Positions 5,777 through 63,757 are shown, counted from the first letter of the stretch. The stretch: DNA of 64,000 nt from an uncultured Oscillospiraceae bacterium (GCA_900540305.1 UQFL01000001.1:45144-109143); one strand, 5' to 3'. Translations and numbers: made by a program. The notes: generated by a model from the letters alone, not told the origin.

Positions 5777-5959
5777 AATAGCACCCGCCTATAAAATTAA
5801 TGATTTTATTAACTTGAGTATAACCCGAAATGTAAATAAATTCAACAGAATCTTGACTTTTTAAAATATAAAATATATCCTTATTATGTGATTAAATGCC
5901 TATACGGCGTTAATATATATTTCTATATAAACTATAATGTAAATCAAGGAGTGTTCTTT

Positions 5960-6706: not shown

Positions 6707-6742
6707 CGGTTTTGAGTAATACATTAAAGAGAGGTTCGATAA

Positions 6743-16514: not shown

Positions 16515-16605
16515 TGATTTAAAATTTAATATTCTTAAAGGCAAATAATATTTACAACATTGTAAATAATATTTACATAACTTATTTAATAATATATAAT
16601 AGGAT

Positions 16606-18006: not shown

Positions 18007-18029
18007 AAATTTTTAAGGGGTGCTTTGCC

Positions 18030-33707: not shown

Positions 33708-35795
33708 TTATTTGATTTTTTTGAGCACAAATATTTCGGCTTCAAGCGGTTTTTCGTATTTTATGTCAAGACCCTTGCTCATAAAATATGCGCCGCTCTT
33801 TTCATATTCTCTGTACTCTGATTTTGCACGGTAAACGGCATTTTCGTCAAGACCTCTGAAACGAAGCGTAACAAATTTATCTGCAAAAAACGAATTTGCA
33901 CCCGTGCAGGCAAAATAAACAGCCTGCGATTTGTCTTTGTTTACATATCCGTTGAGATAAATTCCATCGTCCTCATAATTCATTATGCGGTAAAGGTTTC
34001 CGAATTGTACTGTATTTCTGATCTCTTTATACAGGGAAATGTATTTTTTGCAGATTTCAAGCTCTTTTTCGCTGTATTCGCCAAGATTTGAGCCTATTGA
34101 TAAGGAACCCTGCATTGAAACTGCCAAACGGAATTGCAGAGAAGTCGGGCGTGTGTTATCGTTTGTCTGTGTAACCCACGCGCGCATACATTTTATAGGG
34201 TAAATGAGGCTGTATCCTCTTTGAATATCAAGCCTGTCAACGGGGTCCGTGTTGTCTGACGGCCACACCATATCGTAATGTGAAAGAGCGCCTAAATCAG
34301 TTCTTCCGCCGCCGCTTGCGCACGCTTCAAACTGAACGGATGGGTGTTTTTTTCTAAGCCTGTCAAGTACTGCAAAAACGCCCTCGCTGTGGCGCACCCA
34401 AAGTTCTTTTTGGTTTTCAAGATTTTCAGCGCCTATTTCAGAAAAAGGTCTGTTCATATCCCATTTAATGTATTTTATGTTGTTCTCGCTCAGCATACTG
34501 TCCATAAAGCCGAAAACATATTCCTGAACCTCTGGCTTTGTCATGTTGAGCACAATCTGATTACGCAGCAGGTTCGGAGTTCTTGCGTCATAGTGGTATG
34601 CCCATTCGGGGTGTTCTTCATAAAGGCGTGATTTCGGGTTAACCATTTCAGGCTCAAACCAAAGCCCGAAATCCATTCCCAGAGCGTTTACACCCTCGAT
34701 TAGCGGAGTAAGACCCTCAGGGAATTTTTGTGTGTTTATGTCCCAGTCGCCGAGACCCGATTGGTCGTTGTTTCTGCTTGAAAACCAGCCGTCATCCATA
34801 ACGAAAAGTTCACAGCCGATTTCCGCCGCCTTTTTCGCAAGTTCAAGCTGATGCTTTTCGTTAACATCAAAGCCCGTAGCCTCCCAGCTGTTATATAAAA
34901 CGGGGAGTTCTTTGTCTGCAAAATTTTTAGGCAAAACATTTGAAACGGCAAATTCGTTCAGCATATTGCTCATATCCCCGAGACCGTCGGAAATTCCGCA
35001 ATATACGGATGGTGTAACAAATTCCTCTCCCGAATGAAGCGTGTGTGAAAAATCAAAGCTGTTTATTCCCAAAATTGCTCTTGTTCTGCCTGTGAAATCT
35101 CTCTCAGCCTCAACGCAGAAATTACCGCTGAAAGCTAAAACGGCAAAATAAATTTTTCCGTATTCTTCCTGAGGGTCGGTGCCTGCTATCAGTGCTGGCA
35201 TATGGTGATGCCCCGTTGTGCCTTTTCTGCTCTCAAAGCGAATCTCACCGCCTTTAAGCGATTGCTTTGTCATTCTGAATTCTGCGCCCCAAGAGCCGTT
35301 TGAGTTAATGATTGTGTAAGGCTTTGTCTCGGGCAGATTTATCTCTGCGCTTACGGCTTTTTCAAGCGTAATGCAGTTTTCGCCGAGGTTTTTGATAATC
35401 GTATATCTTTCAATAATATCGCTGTTTTCAAAAATTTTGTAAACAAGTGTAACGGCAAGCGGATAATGCTTGTCGCAAAGGGCTATTTCAAGTGTGTTGC
35501 CGTTGATTTTGTAATCCTGATATTTAAGCACAGTATCACGGCATCCGTCTGAAAATACGCATTTAAGAGCGCATTCACGGTACATTGTTGAGCCGAAAGG
35601 TATGTATTCCGTTTTTGCAAAATCAAGGGCAGGGTGGTTTGAGTTTTCCTCATGGTAATGCGGAATTTCAAAGTCTTCAATTCTGCATTTGTCACCCCAG
35701 TGAAGATGATATACACCTGTTTCGTCAGCGCTTATTGCATACTGAAGATTTTTTGTTTCCAAAATAAAAATGCTGTCTTTTTGCAAAATTCCCAT
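33708..35795 (-). CDS. Alpha-galactosidase, glycoside hydrolase family 36 (melibiase/raffinose-type)
   Basis: 695 aa with GH36 hallmarks, including ...LYNSWEATGFDVNE... and CELFVMDDGWF. Confidence 0.85.
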   Translation of the reverse strand: MGILQKDSIFILETKNLQYAISADETGVYHLHWGDKCRIEDFEIPHYHEENSNHPALDFAKTEYIPFGSTMYRECALKCVFSDGCRDTVLKYQDYKINGNTLEIALCDKHYPLAVTLVYKIFENSDIIERYTIIKNLGENCITLEKAVSAEINLPETKPYTIINSNGSWGAEFRMTKQSLKGGEIRFESRKGTTGHHHMPALIAGTDPQEEYGKIYFAVLAFSGNFCVEAERDFTGRTRAILGINSFDFSHTLHSGEEFVTPSVYCGISDGLGDMSNMLNEFAVSNVLPKNFADKELPVLYNSWEATGFDVNEKHQLELAKKAAEIGCELFVMDDGWFSSRNNDQSGLGDWDINTQKFPEGLTPLIEGVNALGMDFGLWFEPEMVNPKSRLYEEHPEWAYHYDARTPNLLRNQIVLNMTKPEVQEYVFGFMDSMLSENNIKYIKWDMNRPFSEIGAENLENQKELWVRHSEGVFAVLDRLRKKHPSVQFEACASGGGRTDLGALSHYDMVWPSDNTDPVDRLDIQRGYSLIYPIKCMRAWVTQTNDNTRPTSLQFRLAVSMQGSLSIGSNLGEYSEKELEICKKYISLYKEIRNTVQFGNLYRIMNYEDDGIYLNGYVNKDKSQAVYFACTGANSFFADKFVTLRFRGLDENAVYRAKSEYREYEKSGAYFMSKGLDIKYEKPLEAEIFVLKKIK

Positions 35796-40033: not shown

Positions 40034-41338
40034 ATGTATAAAAAACCTGCGAAAACCCCGCCGCTTGGGTGGAACAGCTGGGACTGTTTCGGCGCTGCGG
40101 TAAATGAAAAACAGCTTCGTGAAAATGCCGATTATATGGCTAAGTATTTAAAGCCGTACGGCTGGGAATATATCGTGTGCGATATTCAGTGGTATGAGCC
40201 GAATGCGCACAGCAACGATTATAATAATTTCACCGAGCTCAATATGGATGAATACGGCAGACTTATGCCTGCTGAAAACCGTTTTCCGAGCGCTAAAGGC
40301 GGAAAAGGCTTTAAAGAAATTGCAGATTACTGCCACTCCCTCGGTCTTAAGTTCGGCATACATATTATGAGAGGCGTGCCGAGAGCGGCTGTTCATAAAA
40401 ATCTGCCGATTAAAAACAGCTATTCATCTTGCAGAGATATTGCCCACCATTTTTCCGTTTGCTCTTGGAATACGGATATGTACGGGTGCAGAAATACTTC
40501 TGCGGCACAGGAGTATTATAATTCTATTATTGAGCTTTACGCTTCATGGGGCGTTGATTTTATCAAGTGCGATGATATTTGCGTAACAGAATTCAGACAG
40601 TGGGATACACCGTATTCTGCTGATTATGAGGTGGAAATGCTCAGAAACGCCATTGATAACTGCGGCAGAGAAATTGTGCTTTCTCTTTCTCCCGGCCCTG
40701 CGCATATTGAAAACGCTCAGCACCTTAAACAGCACGCAGATATGTGGCGAATGACGGGCGATTTCTGGGATGATTGGGGCAAGCTTCACGATATGTTTTC
40801 GAAATGCAGACTGTGGCAGAACGAAGTCGGAAACGGCTCTTGGCCGGACTGCGATATGCTGCCGCTAGGCAGACTTTCAAAAAATGCGCCGTGCCACGGT
40901 GATAAAAACAGGTATACTCAGTTTACCAAAGCAGAGCAGATTACAATGATGACGCTTTGGGGGATTTTCAGAAGTCCGCTTATGTTCGGCGGAAATATGC
41001 CCGAAAACGATGAATGGACGCTTTCTCTTTTGACAAACAGGGAATATATGAAAATGCATTCCTCATCATTCGGTGCCAGAGAAATCATTTGCGATGAGAA
41101 AAACGGCAAAGGAACTATTGTGTGGCAGAGCAACGGCAAAAAGTGCAAATACCTCGCAATTTTCAACACCAAAGATAAGGACGCTGATGTTTTTTTTGAT
41201 ATCACAAGAATTCTTATGCCGGATGAAAAATACAGTCTTCTTGACATTTGGAGCGGTGAAAAGACCGAAAATGTAAAAAACAAATTCAAGGTTAATATAC
41301 CTGCTCACGGGGCAAAACTTTATAAAATCACACAATAA
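40034..41338 (+). CDS. Alpha-galactosidase (or alpha-N-acetylgalactosaminidase), glycoside hydrolase family 27; no signal peptide
   Basis: The GH27 hallmark PPLGWNSWD is near the N-terminus, with a catalytic region ...DFIKCDD... . Length is 434 aa. Confidence 0.8.
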   Translation: MYKKPAKTPPLGWNSWDCFGAAVNEKQLRENADYMAKYLKPYGWEYIVCDIQWYEPNAHSNDYNNFTELNMDEYGRLMPAENRFPSAKGGKGFKEIADYCHSLGLKFGIHIMRGVPRAAVHKNLPIKNSYSSCRDIAHHFSVCSWNTDMYGCRNTSAAQEYYNSIIELYASWGVDFIKCDDICVTEFRQWDTPYSADYEVEMLRNAIDNCGREIVLSLSPGPAHIENAQHLKQHADMWRMTGDFWDDWGKLHDMFSKCRLWQNEVGNGSWPDCDMLPLGRLSKNAPCHGDKNRYTQFTKAEQITMMTLWGIFRSPLMFGGNMPENDEWTLSLLTNREYMKMHSSSFGAREIICDEKNGKGTIVWQSNGKKCKYLAIFNTKDKDADVFFDITRILMPDEKYSLLDIWSGEKTENVKNKFKVNIPAHGAKLYKITQ

Positions 41339-41367
41339 TAAAAACACTTTATCAGGCGGAAAAATTT

Positions 41368-42843
41368 ATGACAAAGCAGGAATATCTTGATTTAATAGAC
41401 AGCGTAAACGAAAACGGAAAATATAAAGCAAACTGGGCGTCGCTTTCAAACCACAAAGTGCCCGAATGGTATATGTACGGCAAGGTGGGTGTGTTTATAC
41501 ACTGGGGCATTTACAGTGTGCCGGCATATGGAAACGAATGGTATTCAAGAAATATGTATGATAAAAACTGCCGTGAATACTGCCACCATATAAAAACATA
41601 CGGCAACCATAAAGATTTCGGCTACAAGGATTTTATTCCTATGTTCAAAGGCGAAAAATTCAGCGCTGCCGAATGGGTAAAACTCTTTAAAGACGCAGGG
41701 ATAAAATATGTAATGCCTGTTGCTGAGCATCATGACGGCTTTGCGATGTATGATACTCAGTTTAACCGCTGGAATGCAACAAAAATGGGCCCCTGCCGTG
41801 ATGTTACGGGCGAGATTAAAGCTCAGTGTGAGGAACAGGGACTGACTTTCTGCGCCTCCACACACAGAGCAGAGCACTATTTCTTTATGAATATGGGCAG
41901 AACTTTTGACAGCGATGTTAACAATGAGGAGTATGCCGATTTTTACGGCCCTGCAGTATACCGCAAGGAGTTCAGCTCATCATTGCTCCATCAGTATTCA
42001 GCCGATACTTATTCTGTCGGAGCAAGCAAAGAATGGCTTGAGGACTGGCTTGTGCGCACCTGTGAGCTGATAGACAAATATCAGCCTGCCGTTTTATATT
42101 TTGACTGGTGGATACATAACCATTCGTTTAAGCCGTATTTGAAAAAGCTAGCGGCGTATTACTATAACAGAGCTGATGAATGGGGAAAAGAGGTCACAAT
42201 AAATTATAAGCACGAGGCGTTTCCCCCCACTGTTGCAACATTTGATGTTGAGCGCGGTGCATTGAGCGGTATATCGCCTGTTTATTGGCAGACGGATACG
42301 GCTATCGGCAAATGGTCTTGGGGCTATACTGCCGATAATGAGTTTAAAAGCGCAAGGCAGATAATTTGCGACCTTGTTGACATAGTCAGCAAAAACGGAA
42401 ATATGCTGATAAATGTCGGCCCGAAAGCGGACGGAACGATAACCGAAGAAGAAACAAATGTACTTCTTGATATGGGTAAGTGGCTTAAAATCAACGGTGA
42501 GGGCATTTACGGAACATCCTGCTGGAAAACTTACGGCGAGGGTAAAGTGAATGCCGAAGAGGGCTTTTTCAAGGATTCAAAAGAAAAGGCGTTTACGGAT
42601 AAGGATTTTAGATTTACTTATAAAAACGGCTGTATTTATGCATTTCAAATGCGCCCGTCAAAGGGTGTTAAGATTAAGTCGCTCGCCAAAAAGAGCAGTC
42701 ACGATTTTATCATCAAAAATGTGGAACTTCTTTCTAGCGAGGAAAACATTGCATATATCCGCAGCGAAAAAGGGCTTGAAATTTATCTCAAAAACGAGCC
42801 TGAAAACGATTTGCCGCAGTGCTTTAAAATTACTATCGACTGA
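41368..42843 (+). CDS. Alpha-L-fucosidase, glycoside hydrolase family 29
   Basis: GVFIHWGIYSVPAYGNEWY near the N-terminus is typical of GH29, and a C-terminal beta-sandwich domain follows. Length is 491 aa. Confidence 0.8.
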   Translation: MTKQEYLDLIDSVNENGKYKANWASLSNHKVPEWYMYGKVGVFIHWGIYSVPAYGNEWYSRNMYDKNCREYCHHIKTYGNHKDFGYKDFIPMFKGEKFSAAEWVKLFKDAGIKYVMPVAEHHDGFAMYDTQFNRWNATKMGPCRDVTGEIKAQCEEQGLTFCASTHRAEHYFFMNMGRTFDSDVNNEEYADFYGPAVYRKEFSSSLLHQYSADTYSVGASKEWLEDWLVRTCELIDKYQPAVLYFDWWIHNHSFKPYLKKLAAYYYNRADEWGKEVTINYKHEAFPPTVATFDVERGALSGISPVYWQTDTAIGKWSWGYTADNEFKSARQIICDLVDIVSKNGNMLINVGPKADGTITEEETNVLLDMGKWLKINGEGIYGTSCWKTYGEGKVNAEEGFFKDSKEKAFTDKDFRFTYKNGCIYAFQMRPSKGVKIKSLAKKSSHDFIIKNVELLSSEENIAYIRSEKGLEIYLKNEPENDLPQCFKITID

Positions 42844-48292: not shown

Positions 48293-50151
48293 TGAAGGGA
48301 CCAATGGGACCGAAACACGGAGAACACGGTTATGCAAAACCGAAGGACGCCAAAAAAACATTCGGGCGCATACTTCAGTATATGGGAAGAAGCAAGCTTT
48401 TTCTTGCCGTAGTATTTATTTGCCTTGTTTTGAGCACGGTATGCCAGCTTGCCGCTTCTTATTGGCTCAAACCTATACTGAATGATATTGAAACATCAAT
48501 TGCAGCAGGCAACTTTATGACGGTAGGTATAAAACAGCTTGTTCAGAACCTTATAATTGTTGCTGCGTTTTATTTGGGAATGGCGCTTTTCACATTCATT
48601 CAAAGCCGCGTAATGGTAACTATTGCTTATAAGACAACAAACCTTATAAGAAAAGAACTTTTCAACCATATGCAGTCGCTCCCTCTCAGATATTTTGACA
48701 GTCAGACACACGGCGAAATAATGAGCCGTTTTACAAACGATGTAGATAATATCCAAATGATGCTTGAGCAGTCTATGGTTCAGCTTGTTTCTTCTGTTTT
48801 CACTTTTACAGGCATCATAGTAATGATGATTTATTTAAGTCCGAAATTGTTTATCATTTCTCTTGTATTTCTTATCATTATGGTTGTCAGTGTTAGTCAG
48901 GTGGGAAAGAAATCAAGAAAATATTTCCAAAAACAGCAGAGCAAACTCGGCGAAATGAACGGAAATATCGAGGAAACAATCGAGGGCATGAGAGTAGTAA
49001 AAGTTTTCAACCACGAAGACGCTGCTATCAGTGTGTTTGACGAAAAGAACAATGATTTTAGAAAAGCCGCAACAAATGCAAACTTCTTTGCGGGAATTAT
49101 GGGTCCTTGTTCAATGGGTATCAATAACGCAAGCTATGCAACACTTGCTCTTGCAGGCGGACTTTTGACACTTACAACAGGACTTGACATAGGCACATAT
49201 TTCGCATATTTAAGTTACGCTAAACAGTTTACACAGCCTATTAACCAGATAGCAAACCAGATGAACACTATATTCTCAGCGCTTGCAGGTGCAGAGCGTG
49301 TATTTGAGATTATGGATATGAGCGCAGAGGTTGACGAGGGTACGGTAACTCTTGAAACTAAAGAGGAAAACGGCGAAACAAAGAGATATTGGAATGACGG
49401 CGGAAAACTCATTCCGGTTGAAGGAAATGTTGTATTCGACAATGTTTATTTCTCTTATGTAGAAGGCAAAACTGTCCTTAAAGATATAAACCTTTACGCA
49501 AAGCACGGTCAAAAGATTGCTTTTGTAGGTTCAACTGGTGCAGGTAAAACTACTATTACAAATCTTATTAACAGATTTTACGATATTCAGGAAGGCACTA
49601 TAACCTATGACGGTATAGACATTAAGCGCATTAAGAAGGATGATTTGAGAAAATCGCTTTCAATAGTTCTTCAGGATACGCACCTTTTCACCGGTACGGT
49701 TATGGACAATATAAGATACGGCAGACTTGAAGCTACTGATGAAGAGTGTATTGCGGCGGCAAGGCTTGCTTCTGCTCATTCATTTATCAGGCGTTTGCCC
49801 GATGGCTATAACACGGTTATTTCAGGCGACGGCGGCAACCTTTCACAGGGTCAGCGTCAGTTGCTTGCAATAGCAAGAGCGGCTGTTGCAAAACCGGTTG
49901 TTCTTATTCTTGACGAGGCAACATCTTCAGTTGATACAAGAACCGAGCTCCATATTGAACACGGTATGGATAGACTAATGGAGGGAAGAACGGTATTTGT
50001 AATCGCCCACAGACTTTCAACCGTTAGGAACTCAAACGCAATTATGGTACTTGAAAACGGTGTTATAATTGAGCGCGGAGATCATGATGTTCTTATGGAA
50101 AATAAAGGAAGATATTATGAACTTTGCACCGGAAAGGCGCAGTTGTCATAG
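48292..50151 (+). CDS. ABC transporter permease/ATP-binding protein (type I exporter half-transporter, subunit B)
   Basis: Overlaps the upstream gene as ATGA. A 6-TM domain is followed by an NBD with Walker A GSTGAGKTT, signature LSQGQRQL and Walker B LILDEATSSVD. This is probably the heterodimeric partner of the preceding gene. Confidence 0.85.
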   Translation: MKGPMGPKHGEHGYAKPKDAKKTFGRILQYMGRSKLFLAVVFICLVLSTVCQLAASYWLKPILNDIETSIAAGNFMTVGIKQLVQNLIIVAAFYLGMALFTFIQSRVMVTIAYKTTNLIRKELFNHMQSLPLRYFDSQTHGEIMSRFTNDVDNIQMMLEQSMVQLVSSVFTFTGIIVMMIYLSPKLFIISLVFLIIMVVSVSQVGKKSRKYFQKQQSKLGEMNGNIEETIEGMRVVKVFNHEDAAISVFDEKNNDFRKAATNANFFAGIMGPCSMGINNASYATLALAGGLLTLTTGLDIGTYFAYLSYAKQFTQPINQIANQMNTIFSALAGAERVFEIMDMSAEVDEGTVTLETKEENGETKRYWNDGGKLIPVEGNVVFDNVYFSYVEGKTVLKDINLYAKHGQKIAFVGSTGAGKTTITNLINRFYDIQEGTITYDGIDIKRIKKDDLRKSLSIVLQDTHLFTGTVMDNIRYGRLEATDEECIAAARLASAHSFIRRLPDGYNTVISGDGGNLSQGQRQLLAIARAAVAKPVVLILDEATSSVDTRTELHIEHGMDRLMEGRTVFVIAHRLSTVRNSNAIMVLENGVIIERGDHDVLMENKGRYYELCTGKAQLS

Positions 50152-50284
50152 TTTTGTATCAAATATTGCAAACAAAAGATTGAAAAAAATTAATAAAACA
50201 TCTTTACAAAATATATTTTAGATGGTATAATTCAACTGTATTATATTTCAGTAATTATATTACTTTGATTAATGAGGTGTTTTT

Positions 50285-50830
50285 ATGAAAAAGTTATTAT
50301 CAGTAATCATTTCGGTTATTGCCGTAGTTGCTGTATGTGCTTCTTTTGCAATTCCTTCAATGGCAGCAATAAATGTTTACAGCCCCGAAGGAGAGGTTAT
50401 CGTTCATAGACTTAACGAGCCTACAGTAAACGGTGAAAAGTCAACAAAGATCGGCGCTGCTCAGAGTAGTACAGACAGTGACACATTTACTTTCACTTTC
50501 TCAGGCACAGAAAAGCTTCTCGGCTGGAACTTGATTGACAAAAACGGCAAGGAAATCGCTTTGAGCGACAGTGATGCAAGCTATAAAATCGTAGCTAAGG
50601 AAGGCAAAACCCTTACTATTAAAATCCTTGACTGGACATATTTTGAAGCTCCTGACGGATATACTGTAAACGCTTTGGTTGAAGCAGATTCAACAGGCGG
50701 CACTGCTGACAAGGACGATTCTTCTAAAGCTCCCGAAACAGGTGCAGTTTCAATCGCTCTTGCTTCTGTAGCAGCAGCAGGCGCTGGCGCAGCTGTTCTT
50801 GCTCTTTCAAAAAAGAAAGATGCTGAATAA
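50285..50830 (+). CDS. Small secreted protein with a C-terminal sortase sorting signal (APETG, then a hydrophobic stretch, then a KKKD tail); probable sortase substrate
   Basis: It has a signal peptide and a ~120 aa mature domain. The C-terminus is ...SSKAPETG-AVSIALASVAAAGAGAAVLAL-SKKKDAE, the classic tripartite cell-wall sorting signal with an xPxTG-type motif. Confidence 0.65.
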   Translation: MKKLLSVIISVIAVVAVCASFAIPSMAAINVYSPEGEVIVHRLNEPTVNGEKSTKIGAAQSSTDSDTFTFTFSGTEKLLGWNLIDKNGKEIALSDSDASYKIVAKEGKTLTIKILDWTYFEAPDGYTVNALVEADSTGGTADKDDSSKAPETGAVSIALASVAAAGAGAAVLALSKKKDAE

Positions 50831-50848
50831 TTATAATTAATACTATTA

Positions 50849-50885
50849 AAAAACCTGTTTCCTGTGGGTAACAGGTTTTTTTAAT
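50849..50885 (+). terminator. Rho-independent terminator after the sortase-substrate gene
   Basis: Stem aacctgtt / aacaggtt is followed by TTTTTTTAATG. Confidence 0.8.
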
Positions 50886-50955
50886 GTTTATGAGTTGATG
50901 AAATAGAAAATATATTCTCGAAGCAAATGTACGAATAAGAAATTGCGGTGTAGTA

Positions 50956-51729
50956 ATGAAAGATAATAAAAAGTCAAATTCAATAAGAATTGTGTTGATA
51001 ATTGTTTTTGCAATCATTTTTGTTTGCTGCTGTGTATATATAGGTTTTTATTTATATAATTCAAGTCGTGCTGAAACGGAATATACAACCATTTCCACTT
51101 CTGCACAGACAACAACCCAGGGTGCGCTTGCGGATAATCCTGTTGATTTTGAATCGCTTCAGGCGCAGAATGATGAAATTTATGCATGGATAAAAATTGA
51201 TGATACGGATGTTGACTATCCTATTGTCCAAAGCAAAAATGATGATAATTTTTATCTTAATCACAGCGCTATTGATAAATCTTGGCTCGCAAGCGGAGCG
51301 ATTTATACGCAGGGCTGCAACAGCATTGATTTTTCAGACCCGATAACTCTTGTTTACGGTCATAACGGATATAAGGAAACAATGTTTACAACGCTTCATA
51401 AATTTGAAGACGCTGATTTCTTTAATTCACACGAATATTTTTATATTTATCTTCCCGGCAGAAAGTTGACTTATCAGGTTATATCAGCCTTTAAATATGA
51501 TGACAGACATATAATGAATTCGTTCAATTTTGCTGATGCTAATGACCTGAAAACATTTCAGAATACGGTTACAAATCCAACATCTGCTCTTAAAAATGTT
51601 AGAACAGACCTTGATACAGAAATAAATGAAAACAGCAAAATCGTTGTTTTATCAACTTGTATAACTAATCAAAAAAGTAACAGATATCTTGTATGCGGAG
51701 TGTTAGTAAAAGATGAGCAAACCAATTGA
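50956..51729 (+). CDS. srtB: Class B sortase (SrtB-type cysteine transpeptidase)
   Basis: An N-terminal TM anchor is present. SrtB-like blocks are ...YAWIKIDDTDVDYPIVQSKNDDNFYLNH..., the His loop LVYGHN, the catalytic Cys in VVLSTC and the conserved Arg in NRYLVCGVLV. Confidence 0.75.
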   Translation: MKDNKKSNSIRIVLIIVFAIIFVCCCVYIGFYLYNSSRAETEYTTISTSAQTTTQGALADNPVDFESLQAQNDEIYAWIKIDDTDVDYPIVQSKNDDNFYLNHSAIDKSWLASGAIYTQGCNSIDFSDPITLVYGHNGYKETMFTTLHKFEDADFFNSHEYFYIYLPGRKLTYQVISAFKYDDRHIMNSFNFADANDLKTFQNTVTNPTSALKNVRTDLDTEINENSKIVVLSTCITNQKSNRYLVCGVLVKDEQTN

Positions 51730-52963
51730 TCCAAATCTTAATTCGGATGAACTTTTCAATCCCGATAATAAAGATATTAATACAACGGCTGACAGTGTGC
51801 AGGAAAATACGCAAAAATCAGATTTTTCCGTGTTGGAGGTAGATAAGGGAGAATATACTCCGAGCAGACATCATCATTCTCACAGCTCAAGTCATTCTCA
51901 TTCTCACAGTCACCACCATCATCACAGGCATCATTCAAGCCGTTCAAAAAAGAAGAAAAAACCGCTTTGGTTTAGAATTTTAATAATTATTATAGCAATT
52001 ATTTTTGCGGCTGTTGCAATAGTCGGCGGCACATATATTTATCTTCGTGATAAGGGTCAGAAAGAGCTTGTGGTTGAGCCTGCAAACCCGAAATATGAGG
52101 AAACTATTGAGTACAATGGTCATACCTATATATATGATAAAAACAAGGTAGCTTTTGCTTTCATCGGCGTAGACCGTGAAAATATTGCTCCTGAAGGCGG
52201 CAGTGTAATCGGAAATGCAGGACAGGCTGATACGGATATTGTCGGCGTTATTGATACGGCAACAGGAAAAGTAAGCCTTATCACTATTCCGAGAGATACA
52301 ATGGTTGATATTGACCTTTACTCTGCGTCAGGCGAATTTGTAAGAACTGAAAAAATGCAGCTTTGCCTTTCCTATGCTTACGGTGACGGCGGTGAGAAAT
52401 CCTGCAAGAATGTTACAACTGCTATGAGCCGTATTCTCGGAAATGTTCCGATAGAAAATTATTTTGCTCTTGATCTCGGCGGAATCGCACCTCTCAATGA
52501 CGCAATAGGCGGCGTAACTGTAACTTCGCTTTATGATTTCCCGCAGGAGGGGATTAGCAAGGGTGATACCATTACTATTAAAGGCGACTTTGCAGAAACC
52601 TATGTTCGTTACAGAAGCCTTGATACAATAGACGCTTCTTTAAACAGAACAGAGCGTCAGACTCAGTATATTAAAGCGTATGCTCAGCAACTCAGAACAG
52701 CTGTAACAAACGATTTCTCGGTTGTTTCCAAGCTTTACAATACGGCGGCTGAATACAGCCAAACAAATATTTCATTAAGTTCTGTAACTTATCTTGCTTC
52801 TGTTGTTCTTTCACACGGAATAACTGATATACAGCAATATACGCTTGAGGGAGAAATGAAAGCTTCCAGCGAGGTTACAGAGGATGTATTTGCGGAATAC
52901 TATGTTGACGAGGATTCTGTAATGGATGTTGTAGTTAACTGCTTTTATCAGCAGGTAAATTAA
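51713..52963 (+). CDS. LytR-CpsA-Psr (LCP) family glycopolymer phosphotransferase with a His/Ser-rich cytoplasmic N-terminal tail
   Basis: Overlaps the sortase gene by 17 nt. The N-terminal ~95 aa are cytoplasmic and contain SRHHHSHSSSHSHSHSHHHHHRHHSSRSKKKKK. A TM helix follows, then an LCP catalytic domain (...FAFIGVDRE... DTDIVGVIDTATGKVSLITIPRDT...). Confidence 0.75.
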   Translation: MSKPIDPNLNSDELFNPDNKDINTTADSVQENTQKSDFSVLEVDKGEYTPSRHHHSHSSSHSHSHSHHHHHRHHSSRSKKKKKPLWFRILIIIIAIIFAAVAIVGGTYIYLRDKGQKELVVEPANPKYEETIEYNGHTYIYDKNKVAFAFIGVDRENIAPEGGSVIGNAGQADTDIVGVIDTATGKVSLITIPRDTMVDIDLYSASGEFVRTEKMQLCLSYAYGDGGEKSCKNVTTAMSRILGNVPIENYFALDLGGIAPLNDAIGGVTVTSLYDFPQEGISKGDTITIKGDFAETYVRYRSLDTIDASLNRTERQTQYIKAYAQQLRTAVTNDFSVVSKLYNTAAEYSQTNISLSSVTYLASVVLSHGITDIQQYTLEGEMKASSEVTEDVFAEYYVDEDSVMDVVVNCFYQQVN

Positions 52964-52980
52964 TATTAAAGGAGTTTACA

Positions 52981-53820
52981 ATGAACAGTGAATTGAAAAG
53001 GGAACTTCAGATTTACGCAACCCAGATAAGAATGGGTATTATAGAAGGTACCTATAATGCAAAAGCAGGTCATCCGGGCGGAAGCCTTTCATCTGCTGAT
53101 GTTCTTGCTTATCTTTACGGCGTTAAGATGAAGTATGATGTTAAAAATCCCAAGGATGAAAACAGAGACAGATTTGTTCTTTCAAAGGGTCACGGCGCTC
53201 CTGCGCTTTACAGTGCGCTTGCATACAAGGGCTTTTTCCCCGTTGAGGATTTGAAAACACTCCGTCATATCGGTTCTTATCTTCAGGGCCATCCCAATAT
53301 GAACACCGTTCCCGGTGTTGATATGAGCACAGGCTCTCTCGGTCAGGGCATCAGCGCCGCTTGCGGAATGGCAAAGGGTGCAAAAATGCTCTCAAAGGAT
53401 ATTAAGGTTTATACACTTCTCGGCGACGGTGAAATCGAAGAGGGTCAGGTTTGGGAGGCTATGATGTTTGCTTCTCAGTATAAGCTTGACAATCTCTGCG
53501 TTATCATTGATGTAAACGGACTTCAGATTGACGGCAAATGCTGTGATGTTATGAGTGCTGAGCCTATTGATGAAAAGGTTAAGGCGTTTGGATTTGATTA
53601 TATTGTAATCAACGGAAATGATTTTGACGAGTTTGAAAAAGCTTTTGACGCTTTTGACAAGAGCGATAAACCGTTTGCAATTATTATGAAGACTGTAAAA
53701 GGTCTCGGCGTTTCTTATATGGAAAATGCTGTTGATTGGCACGGTAAAGCTCCGAATACAGAAGAATATGAAATAGCAATGGCAGAGCTTAGTGAAAAGC
53801 TTGCGGAATTGGAGGCGTAA
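52981..53820 (+). CDS. Transketolase, N-terminal (TPP-binding) subunit
   Basis: ...GHPGGSLSSADVLAYLY... and GDGEIEEGQVWEA are transketolase N-terminal half motifs. Length is 279 aa. Confidence 0.9.
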   Translation: MNSELKRELQIYATQIRMGIIEGTYNAKAGHPGGSLSSADVLAYLYGVKMKYDVKNPKDENRDRFVLSKGHGAPALYSALAYKGFFPVEDLKTLRHIGSYLQGHPNMNTVPGVDMSTGSLGQGISAACGMAKGAKMLSKDIKVYTLLGDGEIEEGQVWEAMMFASQYKLDNLCVIIDVNGLQIDGKCCDVMSAEPIDEKVKAFGFDYIVINGNDFDEFEKAFDAFDKSDKPFAIIMKTVKGLGVSYMENAVDWHGKAPNTEEYEIAMAELSEKLAELEA

Positions 53821-53822
53821 GA

Positions 53823-54767
53823 ATGGCTGAAGTAAAATGTGTGGCAACCCGTGAAAGCTACGGAAACGCTCTTAAAGAGCTTGCGGCAGAGGGTGCAGAT
53901 AATCTTGTAGTGCTTGACGCAGACCTTTCCGCCGCTACAAAAACAGGTATATTCAAAAAAGCTTATCCCGATCGTCATATCAACTGCGGTATTGCAGAGT
54001 CTAATATGATGAGCGTTGCAGCTGGTCTCAGCACAATGGGCATGGTTCCGTTTGCTTCAAGCTTCGCAATGTTCGCTGCGGGCAGAGCTTTTGAGCAGAT
54101 TAGAAACTCAATCGGTTATCCCCATCTTAATGTAAAAATCGGTGCTACTCACGCAGGTATTTCAGTTGGTGAGGACGGCGCTTCTCATCAGTGCTGTGAG
54201 GATTTTGCTCTTATGAGATCAATCCCAGGTATGGTAGTTATCTGCCCCGCTGACGATGTAGAGGCAAAACAGGCTGTTAAAGCTGCTTATAAGTATGAGG
54301 GCCCCGTTTATCTCAGATTCGGCAGACTTGCTGTTCCGGTTTTCCACAGCGAGGATTATAAATTTGAAATCGGCAAGGGCGAAGTTGTTAAAGAGGGTAA
54401 AGATGTTACCATTATTGCAAACGGCCTTATGGTTGCTGAGGCGGCAGACGCTGCAAATCAGCTTGCTGAGTGCGGTATAGACGCAGAAGTTATAAATATG
54501 GCAACAATCAAGCCGCTTGATGAAGAGCTTGTTATTAAATCTGCTTCAAAAACAGGTAAAGTAATCACAGTTGAGGAGCACAGCATAATCGGCGGCCTCG
54601 GAGAGGCTGTATGCGCCGCTCTTTCAACAAAGTGCCCCACTCCCGTGGTAAGAATAGGCATTAATGATGAATTCGGTCACAGCGGCCCTGCAAAGGATCT
54701 TCTTAAGCAGTTTGGTCTTTCTGCTGAAAACATTGTTAAAACAACAAAAGAGTTTTTGAATAAGTAA
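53823..54767 (+). CDS. Transketolase, C-terminal (pyrimidine-binding) subunit
   Basis: ...FNCGIAESNMMSVAAGL... and a C-terminal transketolase_C domain. Length is 314 aa. Confidence 0.9.
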   Translation: MAEVKCVATRESYGNALKELAAEGADNLVVLDADLSAATKTGIFKKAYPDRHINCGIAESNMMSVAAGLSTMGMVPFASSFAMFAAGRAFEQIRNSIGYPHLNVKIGATHAGISVGEDGASHQCCEDFALMRSIPGMVVICPADDVEAKQAVKAAYKYEGPVYLRFGRLAVPVFHSEDYKFEIGKGEVVKEGKDVTIIANGLMVAEAADAANQLAECGIDAEVINMATIKPLDEELVIKSASKTGKVITVEEHSIIGGLGEAVCAALSTKCPTPVVRIGINDEFGHSGPAKDLLKQFGLSAENIVKTTKEFLNK

Positions 54768-54960: not shown

Positions 54961-55161
54961 ATGAAATTATTTATTCATTACTTTTTGGTTTTCGTACTCT
55001 CGGTTGGAAGCATAGCAGGCGGTGTGTTTGCTATTTATAATTGCAGCGGTTTAAACTGCGTTTGGTATTATGCAGGTTCAGTTCTTTGCCTTGCAGGCGC
55101 ATGCGCAATCATTTCTGAAATAATCAAATTTGTAAACGTAAAAAGAGGTAAGCTTGTTTGA
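54961..55161 (+). CDS. Small (66 aa) two-TM membrane protein, hypothetical
   Basis: Two hydrophobic helices. Its stop overlaps the TTG start of the GtrA-like gene, which is consistent with translational coupling. Confidence 0.4.
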   Translation: MKLFIHYFLVFVLSVGSIAGGVFAIYNCSGLNCVWYYAGSVLCLAGACAIISEIIKFVNVKRGKLV

Positions 55162-55676
55162 AAACTAAAATTTTGGCTTTTACTGAAAAGCATTCAGAGA
55201 TATGGAAATTTGTAAAATTCACTTTTACGGGCGCAAGCACTTCTGTGCTTGAACTCGGCGTGTTTATGTTTTTGCAGTATGTAGTTTTTAAAAGTCTTAA
55301 CGAAGTCCCTGTAACAGATAATGCTGTTTTGTCATTCCTCGGTATTGAATATAAAGGATATTTGTATTCATATGCCGTATCTGCTATAATAGGTTATGCG
55401 GCGGCGTATATTATGAATAGAAAGCTTACTTTTAAAGCGGACGCCAATCCGTTCTTGTCTACCGTGATTTATGCCGTAATGGTTGTGTGCACAATAGCGT
55501 TTAACACTTGGTTCGGCGCTTTTCTCGGCACGCTGATTAAAAACGGTGGTTATGATACGGTAATTGTAGAAATGATTACAAAGGTTGTTGTAATGACTGT
55601 TCCAACAATCTGGACATATCCGCTCAACAGATTTGTAATCCATAGAAAGAAAAAGCCTGCTTTGGCAATGGCTTGA
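55158..55676 (+). CDS. GtrA-family membrane protein (polysaccharide-biosynthesis-associated)
   Basis: 172 aa with four TM helices. TTG start 7 nt after the AGAGG RBS. The N-terminus WKFVKFTFTGASTSVLELGVFMFL is GtrA-like. Confidence 0.55.
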   Translation: MKTKILAFTEKHSEIWKFVKFTFTGASTSVLELGVFMFLQYVVFKSLNEVPVTDNAVLSFLGIEYKGYLYSYAVSAIIGYAAAYIMNRKLTFKADANPFLSTVIYAVMVVCTIAFNTWFGAFLGTLIKNGGYDTVIVEMITKVVVMTVPTIWTYPLNRFVIHRKKKPALAMA

Positions 55677-62247: not shown

Positions 62248-62323
62248 GCAAAAGTAAAGGTTTATAGTATAATGAAGACAGATACTAATTTTCCCGCGCA
62301 TATATTTTATAAGAGGGTTGTTT

Positions 62324-63757
62324 ATGGGGCGCTTTCATTGCGATGGTCTTGTTATAAGAGATGAATTAAACAGGCAAAGAATATTCAGAGGGGTAAATGT
62401 CTGTTTAAAGGAACCACATTTAAAGGAAAAAGAACTGAGAAAACAGCTTTTAAATAAAAAGCAGTTTGAAGGCTTTGAAAAAACAGGCACTAATCTTATA
62501 AGACTGGGAGTAACCTGGGCGCTTCTTGAACCTGAAAAGGGTAAATATAATCTTGAAGCACTGAATGTTTTAGATGAATTTGCCGCAAAATGTGAAAAAC
62601 AGGGTATATTTATAATGCTTGATATGCATCAAGACCTGTTTTCGCACAGATTTCATGGTGACGGTGCGCCTGAGTGGGCGGTTGAATATATAAAAAAAGC
62701 CAAGCCGCCGTTTGCCGTGTGGGCGGAAGGTTATTTTTATATGTCGTCCGTTCAAACGGCGTTTTACGATTTTTGGAGCAACGCCTTTAATATGCAGGAC
62801 GATTTTTTCAGGTGTTGGGAAGTGTTTTCAAATGCGCTTTCAAACAGGGAAAATGTAATAGCATGCGATTATTTCAATGAGCCTTACCCGCATGAAAACG
62901 GCAGAAAACTATTCTTATCATTCCTGTCAGAGGTTTTGAATCTTGCGTACGGAAAAAGAATAAATTTCGAAAAGTATTTTAAAAATACAAATGAGCATTT
63001 TGCTTTTATAAAAACCGTTGCCAAGGCTGCGTCAATTATCAGAACTCCTAAAAGATTTGACAAGGCTATGGATAAAACGGAAAATATTTCGGAATTTTCG
63101 GATATAGGCAAATCACTTGAAAAGTATACTCAAAATTTTAACAGCAGATATTATGAGCCATTTTTTAAGCGTGCCTGTAACGATATAGGAAAAGATTGTT
63201 TGAATGCTTTTGAGCATAATTATTATTCAAATCTTGGTATACCATTTTATATAGATACAAGAAATATTGAAGAAAACTGTGTTTACAGTCCACACGCTTA
63301 TGATATATTTGTAGATTCTCCGCTGTATGATAAATACTGCTCAAACAGCCGTATTATAAGTATAATCAACACCATAAGGGATAACCAGTTGAATATGAAT
63401 GTGCCCGTAATTTTCGGTGAATGGGGCGCAAACGGAAAAGGGGAGATATTTGAAAATCACCTTTCCTGTATTATGGAGCTTTTTGAAAAATATCAGTGGA
63501 GCAGTACTTATTGGGGCTTTGATTTTAAAAACAAGGAACTTGAAAAAGTATTTAACAGACCGTATCCGAGCGCCGTTTGCGGCGATATTATAAGCATAAA
63601 TACGGATTATGAAGAACGCACATTTGAACTTGTATGGCGTCAAGAAAAGGCTTGCAGAGTTAATGATAAAGTGTGCAATGATATATATATACCTGACAGA
63701 GGCTTTGTTAAATTAGAGGGCAAAGCGGGCGAGAATATAATAAAAATTAACTACTGA
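62324..63757 (+). CDS. Glycoside hydrolase family 5 protein (cellulase superfamily; endoglycoceramidase-like architecture), apparently cytoplasmic (no signal peptide)
   Basis: The GH5 acid/base NEP (YFNEPYPH) and the nucleophile in IFGEWGANG are present. The start is set at the ATG at 62324, 6 nt after the AAGAGGG RBS. The ORF-track position 62318 is a TTG. Confidence 0.7.
   Translation: MGRFHCDGLVIRDELNRQRIFRGVNVCLKEPHLKEKELRKQLLNKKQFEGFEKTGTNLIRLGVTWALLEPEKGKYNLEALNVLDEFAAKCEKQGIFIMLDMHQDLFSHRFHGDGAPEWAVEYIKKAKPPFAVWAEGYFYMSSVQTAFYDFWSNAFNMQDDFFRCWEVFSNALSNRENVIACDYFNEPYPHENGRKLFLSFLSEVLNLAYGKRINFEKYFKNTNEHFAFIKTVAKAASIIRTPKRFDKAMDKTENISEFSDIGKSLEKYTQNFNSRYYEPFFKRACNDIGKDCLNAFEHNYYSNLGIPFYIDTRNIEENCVYSPHAYDIFVDSPLYDKYCSNSRIISIINTIRDNQLNMNVPVIFGEWGANGKGEIFENHLSCIMELFEKYQWSSTYWGFDFKNKELEKVFNRPYPSAVCGDIISINTDYEERTFELVWRQEKACRVNDKVCNDIYIPDRGFVKLEGKAGENIIKINY

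Follow-up and report, generated by a model that had tools for sequence, protein, structure and literature searches.

A conserved three-gene cassette in an uncultured gut lineage of Clostridia, encoding a small sorting-signal protein and, in overlapping genes, a class B sortase and an LCP enzyme, with a putative role in glycopolymer display

The 64,000-nucleotide stretch of DNA analyzed here (the window), from an uncultured gut lineage of Clostridia, carries a real and widely conserved unit of three genes, which encode a small wall-anchored protein, a class B sortase and an LCP (LytR-CpsA-Psr) glycopolymer transferase whose gene overlaps that of the sortase. We propose, with a probability of roughly one half, that this locus represents a conserved cassette which serves the sortase-dependent display of a cell-surface glycopolymer, and in which the LCP enzyme most likely loads the glycan onto the small protein. 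This reading is supported by the family assignments of the proteins, the constant gene order within the clade, the co-occurrence of the two partners of the sortase (71/3/0, see below), the presence of an LCP gene in 11/11 distant loci, and the homology to a locus of Mediterraneibacter gnavus with known mutant phenotypes; to these we add the existence of "mini" substrates, the invariant Asp and Arg residues of the LCP enzyme, and the precedent of Actinomyces oris (PMC6381275). The cassette adds a new member to a sortase/LCP system that is related to that of M. gnavus and as yet barely understood; it does not represent a new kind of sorting signal.

The cassette occupies positions 50285–52963 of the plus strand, on which all of its elements are located, with a secreted-protein gene, a class B sortase gene and an LCP gene in this order. 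The same layout, including a terminator of its own for the first gene, had been proposed in the first-pass annotation, and the open reading frames, the hairpin and the 17-nt gene overlap were all found where it had placed them. The intrinsic-terminator-like hairpin with its T7 run (about 50849–50885, stem core 50861–50875, -8.6 kcal/mol according to RNAfold) lies 3' of the substrate gene and ahead of srtB, and 66 of 73 related loci have a comparable hairpin with a T-run (-8 kcal/mol or lower) between these two genes. The 3' end of srtB and the start of the LCP gene share 17 nt (51713–51729), which suggests that their translation may be coupled. ABC exporter genes flank the cassette on one side and transketolase genes on the other; the split transketolase genes begin 17 nt past the LCP stop codon with no terminator in between, and because the LCP gene runs on to them in this way, operon membership alone is weak evidence here. 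Ahead of the substrate gene we also observed a promoter-like site that the first-pass annotation did not list (TTTACA-17-TATAAT with an upstream TG, 50203–50231). It matches the sigma-70-like consensus at 11 of 12 positions and has an extended -10 TG, which makes it the best site in the interval 50000–53200 as judged by consensus match alone; the scan of this interval revealed no comparable site directly ahead of the sortase gene.

The first gene (50285–50830) encodes a small secreted protein of 181 aa, the predicted sortase substrate, which consists of a signal peptide (approximately aa 1–27), an Ig-like beta-sandwich (approximately aa 40–135), a stalk, the motif APETG, a membrane helix and the tail KKKDAE. 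Profile searches found no Pfam or NCBIfam match for it, and its 62 homologues, all 171–200 aa in length, are likewise without any Pfam domain. In the AlphaFold2 model the N-terminus forms a signal-peptide-like helix (helices are predicted at residues 2–26 and 166–179); the mean pLDDT of ten-residue blocks is 86–94 over residues 41–130 and 61 for residues 131–140, and residues 136–169 are below 50. The fold search returned weak Ig-like matches alone, with zero at E<=0.001. The mature N-terminus is conserved as V-Y-S-P-x-G, and the stalk is disordered and rich in Thr, Ser and Asp, with KDDSSK as the last residues before APETG. In two independent genomes (L013 and L016) we found "mini" substrates of 87–89 aa, which are reduced to the signal peptide, an N-terminus that reads VNSPSG, and the sorting signal preceded by a short stalk. 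Since these proteins do without the Ig-like domain, the constrained part of the substrate is the stalk with the anchor rather than the Ig-like domain.

The same observation bears on a reading in which the class B sortase would polymerize the small Ig-like protein into pilus-like fibres, as Spy0129 of Streptococcus pyogenes does with pilins, and the LCP gene would be incidental. Certain class B sortases do polymerize pilins (PMC3019223), the modelled fold of the substrate is Ig-like, and an M. gnavus mutant in the sortase gene srtB4 lacks the fibrous material of its surface (PMC13121745). We nevertheless consider pilus assembly very improbable, as the mini substrates are entirely devoid of the Ig-like domain, the Ig-like domain has no conserved Lys that could serve as the nucleophile (the invariant and near-invariant columns of our 42-sequence substrate alignment, A2, contain no Lys over residues 28–142), the locus has a single pilin-like gene and neither a tip nor a base pilin, and the M. 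gnavus mutant loses material with the staining of an acidic polysaccharide (PMC13121745).

The sorting motif APETG (residues 149–153, 50729–50743) sits 28 residues from the C-terminus; after it come 23 residues that are hydrophobic or small, and then KKK, the membrane stretch and the charged tail KKKDAE together covering 50744–50827. As the marks of a cell-wall sorting signal we used a signal peptide, an xPxTG-type motif 17–45 residues from the C-terminus, a hydrophobic stretch and basic residues; the window protein has all of them (the signal peptide being predicted), in agreement with the earlier description of this gene as a sorting-signal substrate, and it is the only xPxTG substrate in the 64 kb. 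By analogy with SrtB from Clostridioides difficile, cleavage is predicted to occur between T and G (PMC4155245). Among 74 orthologous substrates the motif reads [S63/A11]-P74-x-T74-G74 and has a conserved T-rich run and K-K-[ND]-x-S-S-K ahead of it, with residues -7 to -1 conserved. The C-terminal tail is KK[KR]DAE in 46/74 orthologues, and K177, K178, D179, A180 and E181 are invariant in alignment A2. The suggestion that APETG represents a distinct specificity did not survive this comparison: with SPxTG in 63/74 and APxTG in 11/74 orthologues, the signal belongs to the (S/P)PXTG type, which C. difficile SrtB cleaves (PMC4155245), with a conservative variant of the first position, although the Ala of the window protein itself is neither Ser nor Pro. 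As judged from the alignments, APETG is an ordinary variant of [SA]PxTG, of the C. difficile SrtB type, and no new sorting signal.

The second gene (50956–51729) encodes a class B sortase of 257 aa, a type II membrane protein. Its catalytic residues, His136 (in LVYGHN, 51361–51363), Cys235 (in LSTC, 51658–51660) and Arg243 (51682–51684), are invariant in an 18-sequence alignment of relatives, have a TLxTC-type context and can be aligned to the equivalent parts of C. difficile SrtB. The protein scores 41.4 bits against the Pfam Sortase profile (PF04203, cut-off 26.6, E=1.5e-10) and 153.2 bits against the class B profile TIGR03064, which is 0.55 under the cut-off of 153.75; this alignment is full-length (3–235 of 235), and the models ranking after it score at most 71 bits. 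Relatives from the same type of cassette exceed the cut-off (L128, 182 bits; L084, 160 bits), and 15 of 15 PDB sequence matches are class B enzymes, including 4y4q, 5gyj, 4ux7, 5b23, 1rz2, 2oqw and 1ng5. Our profile-HMM analysis is therefore in accord with the original class B annotation, and on these sequence comparisons we regard the class assignment as unambiguous although the TIGR03064 score is marginally under its cut-off. C. difficile SrtB is matched with an E-value of about 1e-21 (~80 bits), while SrtB4 of the M. gnavus-type locus (L128) is much closer. We infer that the window sortase cleaves APETG.

The third gene (51713–52963) encodes an LCP family phosphotransferase of 416 aa, as had been annotated: it scores 71.4 bits against PF03816 (cut-off 24.6) and 62.1 bits against TIGR00350, marginally under the cut-off of 62.3, and its PDB sequence matches are all LCP proteins. 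From the cytoplasmic N-terminus onwards it comprises the motif PIDPNL, which is invariant, a run of acidic residues, a His/Ser-rich tract (aa 53–74, nt 51869–51934), poly-Lys and a membrane helix (approximately aa 85–107); the poly-Lys precedes a hydrophobic stretch that is at least 19 residues long, lies at residue 85 in the window and has the same position in 69 loci. The topology predicted from the sequence is that of an LCP enzyme, with a single N-terminal membrane helix and an extracellular catalytic domain (LCP domain aa 170–327, nt 52220–52693). Among 71 family members D154, D173, R194-D195, R299, R301, R312 and R315-Q316 are invariant, R194 being the Arg of the PRD motif and R299/R301 the R-x-R pair. 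The position of the first catalytic Arg is occupied by Gln in 60/71 members; in solved Firmicute LCP structures it is Arg in Lin1025 and Asn in BrpA and gbs0355, and in A. oris LcpA, which has R128, R149 and R266 as its three Arg residues, glycosylation was not lost upon the R128A change (PMC6381275). Cys218 is near-invariant (69/71), and its possible partners, Cys 231 and 410, are not conserved, unlike in A. oris LcpA, which has the stabilizing disulfide of actinobacterial enzymes. The nearest solved relatives are ordinary glycopolymer-to-peptidoglycan ligases of Firmicutes, namely Lmo1026, BrpA, TagV and TagU.

Conservation was analyzed in 80 species-level genomes with a sortase 55–81% identical to that of the window. 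The order substrate, srtB, LCP is kept across these loci, and the 17-nt overlap is present in 68/73 of them. At the 74 sortase loci in which both sides could be read, substrate and LCP genes are both present in 71 cases, both missing in 3, and in no case is one found alone. The three loci without them (the sisters L031 and L047, and L079) have an intact sortase gene directly between the ABC and transketolase genes; as genes on both sides of the sortase gene have been lost, two separate deletions are implied per lineage, in at least two lineages, although "absent from the locus" may also mean that both genes have been relocated elsewhere in the genome. Because the sortase persists in these genomes without substrate or LCP, it probably has further substrates and is not purely dedicated to the small protein.

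Outside the clade, we examined the class B sortases with the highest scores for a profile built from relatives 33–46% identical to the window's sortase, which gave 11 distant loci. All 11 have an LCP gene directly downstream of the sortase gene, in unrelated flanks, with an overlap of 17 or 20 nt in 9/11, and ten encode a signal-peptide protein of 143–206 aa that ends with an SPxTG-like motif, a helix and a basic tail; in the remaining one (L150) no small SPxTG protein was found within 3.5 kb. One distant locus is from Adlercreutzia (Coriobacteriia), and four adjoin the capsule regulators Wzz, BY-kinase and CpsB. Since it is found again in about 90 independent loci, the arrangement is far beyond chance, and the view of the first-pass annotation that the juxtaposition of sortase and LCP is functionally meaningful is strengthened by its conservation over families and phyla in unrelated genomic contexts.

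In the Lachnospiraceae member M. gnavus, capsule is abolished from the wall fraction both by deletion of srtB4 and by disruption of the LCP gene (RGna_12040); the study that showed this (Nat Commun 2026) presented no mechanism for the requirement of a sortase and assigned no role to the small protein (PMC13121745). We recovered an M. gnavus-type srtB4 locus (L128) by means of the primers given in that paper (PMC13121745), and found its SrtB4 to be 38% identical to the window sortase over 252 aa (E=1.5e-61) and its LCP protein 32% identical to that of the window over 305 aa (E=1e-55). Both organisms are gut Firmicutes, and as in the window, the M. gnavus cluster (RGna_12030-12060) has an LCP gene that directly follows and overlaps a class B sortase gene (by 14 nt in the M. 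gnavus-type locus vs 17 nt) and a small signal-peptide protein with an SPxTG-type sorting signal (L128, 7631–8233, ending with TSPQTG, a helix and RKKRA). The two loci differ in gene order, which is Wzz, SrtB4, LCP, VanZ, substrate, CpsB, BY-kinase within a large capsule synthesis cluster in the M. gnavus type, whereas in the window the substrate gene is upstream, followed by terminator, SrtB and LCP; the long His/Ser-rich cytoplasmic tail of the window LCP is also absent from the M. gnavus protein. A Pfam analysis of all ORFs of at least 150 aa detected neither genes of polysaccharide synthesis nor genes for Wzz, BY-kinase or CpsB within the 64-kb window, where BLAST likewise found no homologues of the Wzz, CpsB and CpsD proteins of L128. 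The sole candidate for capsule synthesis in the window is a GtrA-like protein (55158–55676). The earlier statement that coupling of sortase and LCP is not well described in Firmicutes thus no longer fully holds, since M. gnavus, in order to present its capsule, requires both srtB4 and an adjacent LCP gene (PMC13121745) that are homologous to the window's pair.

The M. gnavus phenotypes (PMC13121745) and the co-occurrence pattern would fit equally well a role of the anchored small protein as an accessory factor, which would scaffold, position or activate the LCP or export machinery or bind the polymer non-covalently, or whose helix and KKKDAE tail would, after cleavage, signal to the LCP N-terminus (PIDPNL). 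The KK[KR]DAE tail and the LCP N-terminus (M-x-K-P-I-D-P-N-L), both on the cytoplasmic side, are indeed unusually conserved. PIDPNL and KKKDAE are clade-specific, however, and the distant cassettes have tails such as RKKVSE and RSAKAK and other LCP N-termini, which argues that such a contact is no general feature; moreover, the mini substrates have almost no extracellular part for scaffolding. We therefore hold an accessory role to be improbable.

We also consider rather unlikely, if deserving of more weight, that the genes are co-expressed without a common substrate. The LCP enzyme would then ligate a glycopolymer to the MurNAc of peptidoglycan, the sortase would be a general housekeeping enzyme as in C. 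difficile and the small protein an ordinary neighbour. The genes would stay linked because both enzymes work at one site, on nascent peptidoglycan or lipid II, and require low expression at matching levels. The canonical catalytic residues of the LCP enzyme and its closest solved relatives, which are peptidoglycan ligases, agree with this, as do the apparent continuation of the operon into the transketolase genes and the intact sortase genes in loci from which substrate and LCP are missing, which suggest other substrates. For SrtB of C. difficile, proposed to be a housekeeping sortase, seven (S/P)PXTG substrates with diverse functions are predicted (PMC4155245). This enzyme shares with the window sortase the class B fold family, its structures 5gyj and 4ux7 being among the best sequence matches (PMC4155245, PMC5118464), and its motif type agrees with the SPxTG of most orthologues of the window substrate, with T|G cleavage expected. 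It differs in that its substrates are varied adhesins and hydrolases, and we found no sortase-LCP coupling in the papers on C. difficile that were consulted (PMC4155245, PMC5065235). Co-expression alone leaves unexplained why substrate and LCP are either both present or both missing and never occur singly, why 10/11 distant loci, whose flanks are unrelated, have a small SPxTG protein beside the pair, how the Ig-like domain could be lost while stalk and anchor are retained, and why deletion of the sortase removes capsule from the M. gnavus wall fraction (PMC13121745).

Several distant relatives of the cassette have the LCP gene beside Wzz (CpsC-like), BY-kinase (CpsD-like) and CpsB, as in cpsABCD modules, and the catalytic Asp and Arg are conserved both in the window LCP and in the CpsA-type ligases of streptococci and staphylococci. 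In the latter systems the capsule is attached straight to peptidoglycan, with no sortase or carrier protein. Unlike such modules, the unit described here has a sortase gene joined to it, and the window lacks the regulators.

In A. oris, as predicted for the window, a small sorting-signal protein is linked genetically to an LCP enzyme and anchored by a sortase. The A. oris sortase is the housekeeping SrtA, which recognizes a LAxTG-type signal and has not been described as belonging to the gspA-lcpA unit, whereas in the window the sortase gene is within the unit. The lcpA gene lies directly downstream of gspA, and LcpA glycosylates GspA, which is then anchored by SrtA (PMC6381275); this is the only documented case of LCP glycosylation of a protein (PMC6381275, review: PMC7831098). 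The analogy drawn in the first-pass annotation is reasonable in view of this arrangement (PMC6381275). The PDB sequence matches of the window LCP at E<=0.01 do not include A. oris LcpA. This and the poor conservation of the possible Cys partners lower the case for membership in the A. oris GspA/LcpA type, not for a similar mode of action.

Under the reading that we prefer, glycan loading of the small protein, the substrate gene would be strongly transcribed from its own promoter, with the majority of transcripts ending at the terminator, and srtB with the translationally coupled LCP gene would be expressed at low levels by read-through or from a weak promoter. After export of the small protein, its C-terminal helix and the KKKDAE tail would retain it in the membrane, and the class B sortase would cut it at [SA]PxT|G and join the Thr to a peptidoglycan precursor. 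In the same pathway the LCP enzyme would most likely transfer glycan-phosphate from a lipid-linked donor to a hydroxyl group of the Thr/Ser-rich stalk (the T-rich run and KK[ND]xSSK before the motif), a step for which the strict co-occurrence of substrate and LCP and the conserved Ser/Thr stalk are indirect evidence. The polysaccharide would thus reach the wall via a protein carrier, as in the modification of GspA by LcpA before SrtA anchoring. Counting against this are the peptidoglycan ligases as nearest solved LCP relatives, the lack of capsule genes in the 64 kb, the solitary sortase in three genomes, the locus L150 without an SPxTG protein and the different gene order in M. gnavus. We extend the proposal only tentatively, and at somewhat less than even odds, to the idea that in many gut Clostridia and Coriobacteriia the LCP enzyme loads polysaccharide onto the stalk of an SPxTG protein, which the coupled class B sortase anchors, instead of ligating it directly to peptidoglycan.

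LCP enzymes are textbook glycopolymer-to-peptidoglycan ligases, and the one actinobacterial case of protein glycosylation has been treated as unique. The comparative data reveal sortase, LCP and small SPxTG protein as a unit kept across families and two phyla; the window by itself is of more modest import, as a further member of the cassette. The capsule of the gut commensal M. gnavus is a factor in colonization and inflammation (PMC13121745), and a protein carrier for polysaccharide offers a concrete and testable explanation of why it is sortase-dependent. If the proposal is true, the dependence of the M. gnavus capsule on SrtB4 would be explained, the clade of the window would represent the minimal three-gene form of the pathway, and LCP protein glycosylation, so far known from A. 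oris GspA alone, would be in widespread use for the anchoring of polysaccharides.

The cassette consists of three genes on the forward strand. The first (50285–50830) encodes the 181-aa substrate, with a signal-peptide-like N-terminal helix, an APETG sorting motif (residues 149–153, nt 50729–50743), a 23-residue hydrophobic stretch and the tail KKKDAE. It is followed by a terminator-like hairpin with seven T residues (approximately 50849–50885, RNAfold -8.6 kcal/mol), the sortase gene srtB (50956–51729, Pfam Sortase E-value 1.5e-10) and the LCP gene (51713–52963, PF03816, 71 bits). Our analysis confirmed these four features of the first-pass annotation at the coordinates listed here, together with the overlap of exactly 17 nt between srtB and the LCP gene. 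The assignment of the sortase to class B was also supported by profile and structure-sequence searches: the class B model TIGR03064 covers the full length of the protein with 153.2 bits, which is 0.55 bit under the curated cut-off, while all other classes score far lower, and 15 out of 15 solved structures detectable by sequence are class B sortases, including SrtB from Clostridioides difficile. His136, Cys235 and Arg243 are invariant among the sortase relatives. Ahead of the substrate gene we found a putative near-consensus promoter with an extended -10 element (50203–50231), identified by its match to the consensus; the same scan found no comparable promoter directly ahead of srtB. The 5' leader of the substrate gene is approximately 50 nt long, and an Rfam scan of the window for riboswitches (e.g. 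of the c-di-GMP type that controls the C. difficile substrates) returned nothing at gathering thresholds.

Scanning a single genome for each species, we found 133 loci with a close relative of the sortase and analyzed the best 80. Nearly all of these are metagenome-assembled genomes labelled Eubacterium sp., Ruminococcaceae or Clostridiales, with sortases 55–81% identical to that of the window; the window itself has a G+C content of 40.7% and housekeeping genes of the anaerobic gut Firmicute type. Most of the 80 loci retain the order MarR, ABC, ABC, substrate, srtB, LCP, transketolase-N and transketolase-C, and in their more distant members the flanks differ while the three-gene core is constant. 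In 68 of 73 loci srtB and the LCP gene share exactly 17 nt, and a hairpin with a T-run separates the substrate gene from srtB in 66 of 73. Judged from the sequence, such an arrangement would give strong expression of the structural gene, with most transcripts ending at its own terminator, and low-level production of the presumably translationally coupled enzymes that follow.

The N-terminal cytoplasmic part of the LCP (residues 1–84, 51713–51964) begins with an invariant M-x-K-P-I-D-P-N-L motif, also found in this region in related loci L001–L078, followed by an acidic variable stretch, a His/Ser-rich low-complexity tract, poly-Lys and the membrane helix. This tract, with variants like HHSSS or HSHSHS repeats, contains 14 His residues in the window and 8–30 in 69 related loci; LCPs of the distant cassettes described below have only a basic stretch in its place. 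Our guess is that it binds metal or serves as a disordered spacer. At residue 171, the position of the first of the three canonical arginines, the window LCP has Gln. Gln also occupies this position in 60 of 71 family members and in GQSD of the M. gnavus-type LCP; Listeria Lin1025 carries Arg, and BrpA and gbs0355 carry Asn. We considered this Gln as a mark of altered chemistry and set the idea aside, since BrpA-type LCPs have Asn there.

Among 74 orthologous substrates the sorting motif reads [SA]-P-x-T-G (S in 63, A in 11), with P, T and G invariant and with S, A, K, D, G, E, N or P at position x. C. difficile SrtB cleaves signals of the (S/P)PXTG type between T and G (PMC4155245). The earlier view of APETG as a departure from known signals is therefore not borne out and a new specificity class is rejected, because most orthologs carry SPxTG; the window motif is a conservative variant within that family. 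Its surroundings are more unusual than the motif itself: in the orthologs it is directly preceded by a Thr-rich run and K-K-[N/D]-x-S-S-K, most cytoplasmic tails read KK[K/R]DAE, and the mature N-terminus is V-x-S-P-x-G. No further sorting-signal proteins, sortases or LCPs were found in the 64-kb window. Two regular-expression matches, LPLTG at the C-terminus of the FtsW/RodA protein (gene end 8008) and NPETI in ribulose-phosphate epimerase, were discarded as false positives.

The substrate matched no Pfam or NCBIfam family. Its predicted structure contains an Ig-like sandwich (residues 41–130, pLDDT block means 86–94), for which a fold search found nothing beyond generic Ig-like structures, all with E above 0.001, and gave no functional clue. 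A word-index search of limited sensitivity for proteins of other architecture with the same tail yielded 62 matches, all of them the same small protein, and so gave no sign of additional substrates. Two separate lineages encode mini substrates of 87–89 aa (L013:246–515 and L016:4625–4888), in which an in-frame deletion has removed the Ig-like domain, while the signal peptide, VNSPSG, a linker of approximately 15–20 residues, SPNTG or APPTG, the helix and KKKDAE are kept. Stalk and anchor thus look like the constrained part of the substrate. The mini substrates, together with the absence of a conserved Lys in the Ig-like domain, also led us to reject assembly of the small protein into pilus-like fibers, which we regard as highly improbable.

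Substrate and LCP are retained or absent together. In 74 loci readable on both sides of srtB, both genes are present in 71, neither in three, and one alone in none. In the three exceptions (L031:4906–5825, L047:4874–5809 and L079:4708–5679) the sortase gene is intact and directly abutted by the transketolase gene and by an upstream gene, which encodes the ABC exporter in L031 and L047 and belongs to a different flank in L079. Because the two missing genes lie on opposite sides of srtB, each exception requires two deletions, and because L079 branches apart from the sisters L031 and L047 in a tree of sortase plus transketolase, at least two independent events are indicated; the genes may, alternatively, have been relocated elsewhere in these genomes. 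Persistence of the sortase without them implies that it has further substrates. The sortases of these lineages are unusually diverged (64% identity between the sisters, whose transketolases are 85% identical).

Cassettes of this type extend beyond the clade. At E≤1e-30 an exhaustive search for the sortase gave 557 cluster representatives, and a profile built from 20 relatives 33–46% identical to the window sortase was used to gather further proteins. We examined 11 distant loci, selected solely on record length and source, one of which (L081) comes from Adlercreutzia sp. ZJ304 of the Coriobacteriia. In all 11 an LCP gene follows the sortase gene immediately, with an overlap of 17 or 20 nt in nine. 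Ten also encode a protein of 143–206 aa with a signal peptide, an SP-containing mature N-terminus, a sorting motif (SPKTG, SPATG, SPQTG, SPITG, APPTG or SPPTA), a helix and a basic tail; only L150 has no small protein nearby. The loci have unrelated flanks, among them genes for V-ATPase, NAD synthesis, glycolysis and histidine synthesis, and four adjoin the capsule-regulator genes Wzz, BY-kinase and CpsB. With an LCP directly after the sortase in 11 of 11 loci with unrelated flanks, the sortase-LCP coupling proposed in the first-pass annotation is real, and this part of its interpretation stands where the novelty of APETG does not. That sortase, LCP and small protein have independent functions and are merely co-expressed is rather unlikely.

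In the four capsule-regulator loci the small protein/SrtB/LCP unit lies directly beside these genes (L081:6065–8495, L082:962–3106, L083:910–3054, L147:1820–3446 and 5667–6299), which together with the LCP gene form a cpsABCD-like module with an inserted sortase. The mature N-terminus of the small protein always contains S-P soon after the predicted signal-peptidase site (window, L081–L087, L128 and L147–L149), e.g. VYSPEG in the window (50366–50400, residues 28–39) and APSP, DPSP, ESPTG, VSPAP, KSPNG or AAPS elsewhere. This N-terminal S-P recalls the C-terminal SPxTG, which also begins with "SP"; it may be modified, provide the context for a nucleophile or simply reflect a signal-peptidase preference.

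The split transketolase genes (52981–53820 for the N-terminal and 53823–54767 for the C-terminal half, region 52964–54767) start 17 nt past the LCP stop codon, with no terminator-like site in the gap. Most related loci show the same adjacency, so srtB, LCP and transketolase genes are probably co-transcribed. At 54961–55676 a 66-aa membrane protein gene overlaps one for a GtrA/DPMS-family membrane protein (PF04138), which is duplicated in several related loci (L002, L004–L006, L008, L009 and L011). Proteins of the GtrA type have been connected with sugars on lipid carriers, and no other candidate with a link to glycans lies close to the cassette. Elsewhere in the window, FtsE/FtsX genes (13539–15289) precede three tandem PcsB-like coiled-coil M23 peptidase paralogs (15279–16514, 16606–18006 and 18030–19463), an expanded FtsEX-controlled peptidoglycan hydrolase set (region 13539–19463). 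The region 5888–9408 encodes a double-FHA-domain protein, then an FtsW/RodA-family protein and a class B PBP transpeptidase (4-nt overlap, 8005–8008). Glycoside hydrolase genes at 33708–35795, 40034–42843 and 62318–63757 (GH36 alpha-galactosidase, melibiase-like, GH29 alpha-L-fucosidase, GH5) fit a gut glycan-degrading lifestyle.

A genetically characterized relative is srtB4 of Mediterraneibacter gnavus (RGna_12035, in cluster RGna_12030–12060; PMC13121745, 2026). Clean deletion of srtB4, like disruption of the LCP gene, left no capsule in the wall fraction and reduced gut fitness; the authors considered it unlikely that the sortase makes capsule directly and proposed no mechanism (PMC13121745). 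The primer sequences from that paper have perfect matches in 59 human-gut metagenome contigs, including L128, in which the order is Wzz, SrtB4, LCP, VanZ, small protein, CpsB and BY-kinase, with a SrtB4-LCP overlap of 14 nt and a small signal-peptide protein ending in TSPQTG, a helix and RKKRA. The window sortase is 38% identical to this SrtB4 (E-value 1.5e-61) and the window LCP 32% identical to its LCP (E-value 1e-55), similarities that greatly exceed those to C. difficile SrtB (E-value ~1e-21) or any solved LCP (E-value ~1e-14). This homology to a pair genetically required for capsule display is solid, as are the gene anatomy, the assignment to families and the conservation, and the window pair likely works in the same pathway.

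We regard sortase-dependent display of a surface glycopolymer as the best-supported reading of the cassette, with a probability of about 0.5 that combines the pathway claim and the carrier step. The latter is modelled on Actinomyces oris, where gspA is immediately followed by lcpA, whose product glycosylates GspA before anchoring by SrtA (PMC6381275), a case called unique in a 2021 review (PMC7831098). By analogy, the LCP would load a glycan onto the stalk of the small protein, and the sortase would then fix the conjugate to peptidoglycan. This carrier step, which we put forward tentatively, would explain the need of a sortase for capsule, the small SPxTG protein accompanying the pair, the joint retention or absence of substrate and LCP, and the dispensable Ig-like domain; we find it improbable that the small protein is instead an accessory or signalling factor. 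Against glycopolymer display speak the absence of polysaccharide genes within the window, the terminator-free run-on into the transketolase genes, locus L150, the M. gnavus gene order, which is not that of the window cassette, and the window LCP itself, which resembles ordinary peptidoglycan ligases and has no detectable sequence kinship to A. oris LcpA.

This type of cassette has been recognized recently, and the worth of the present locus is mainly comparative: it defines a minimal core of three genes and points to a specific mechanism.
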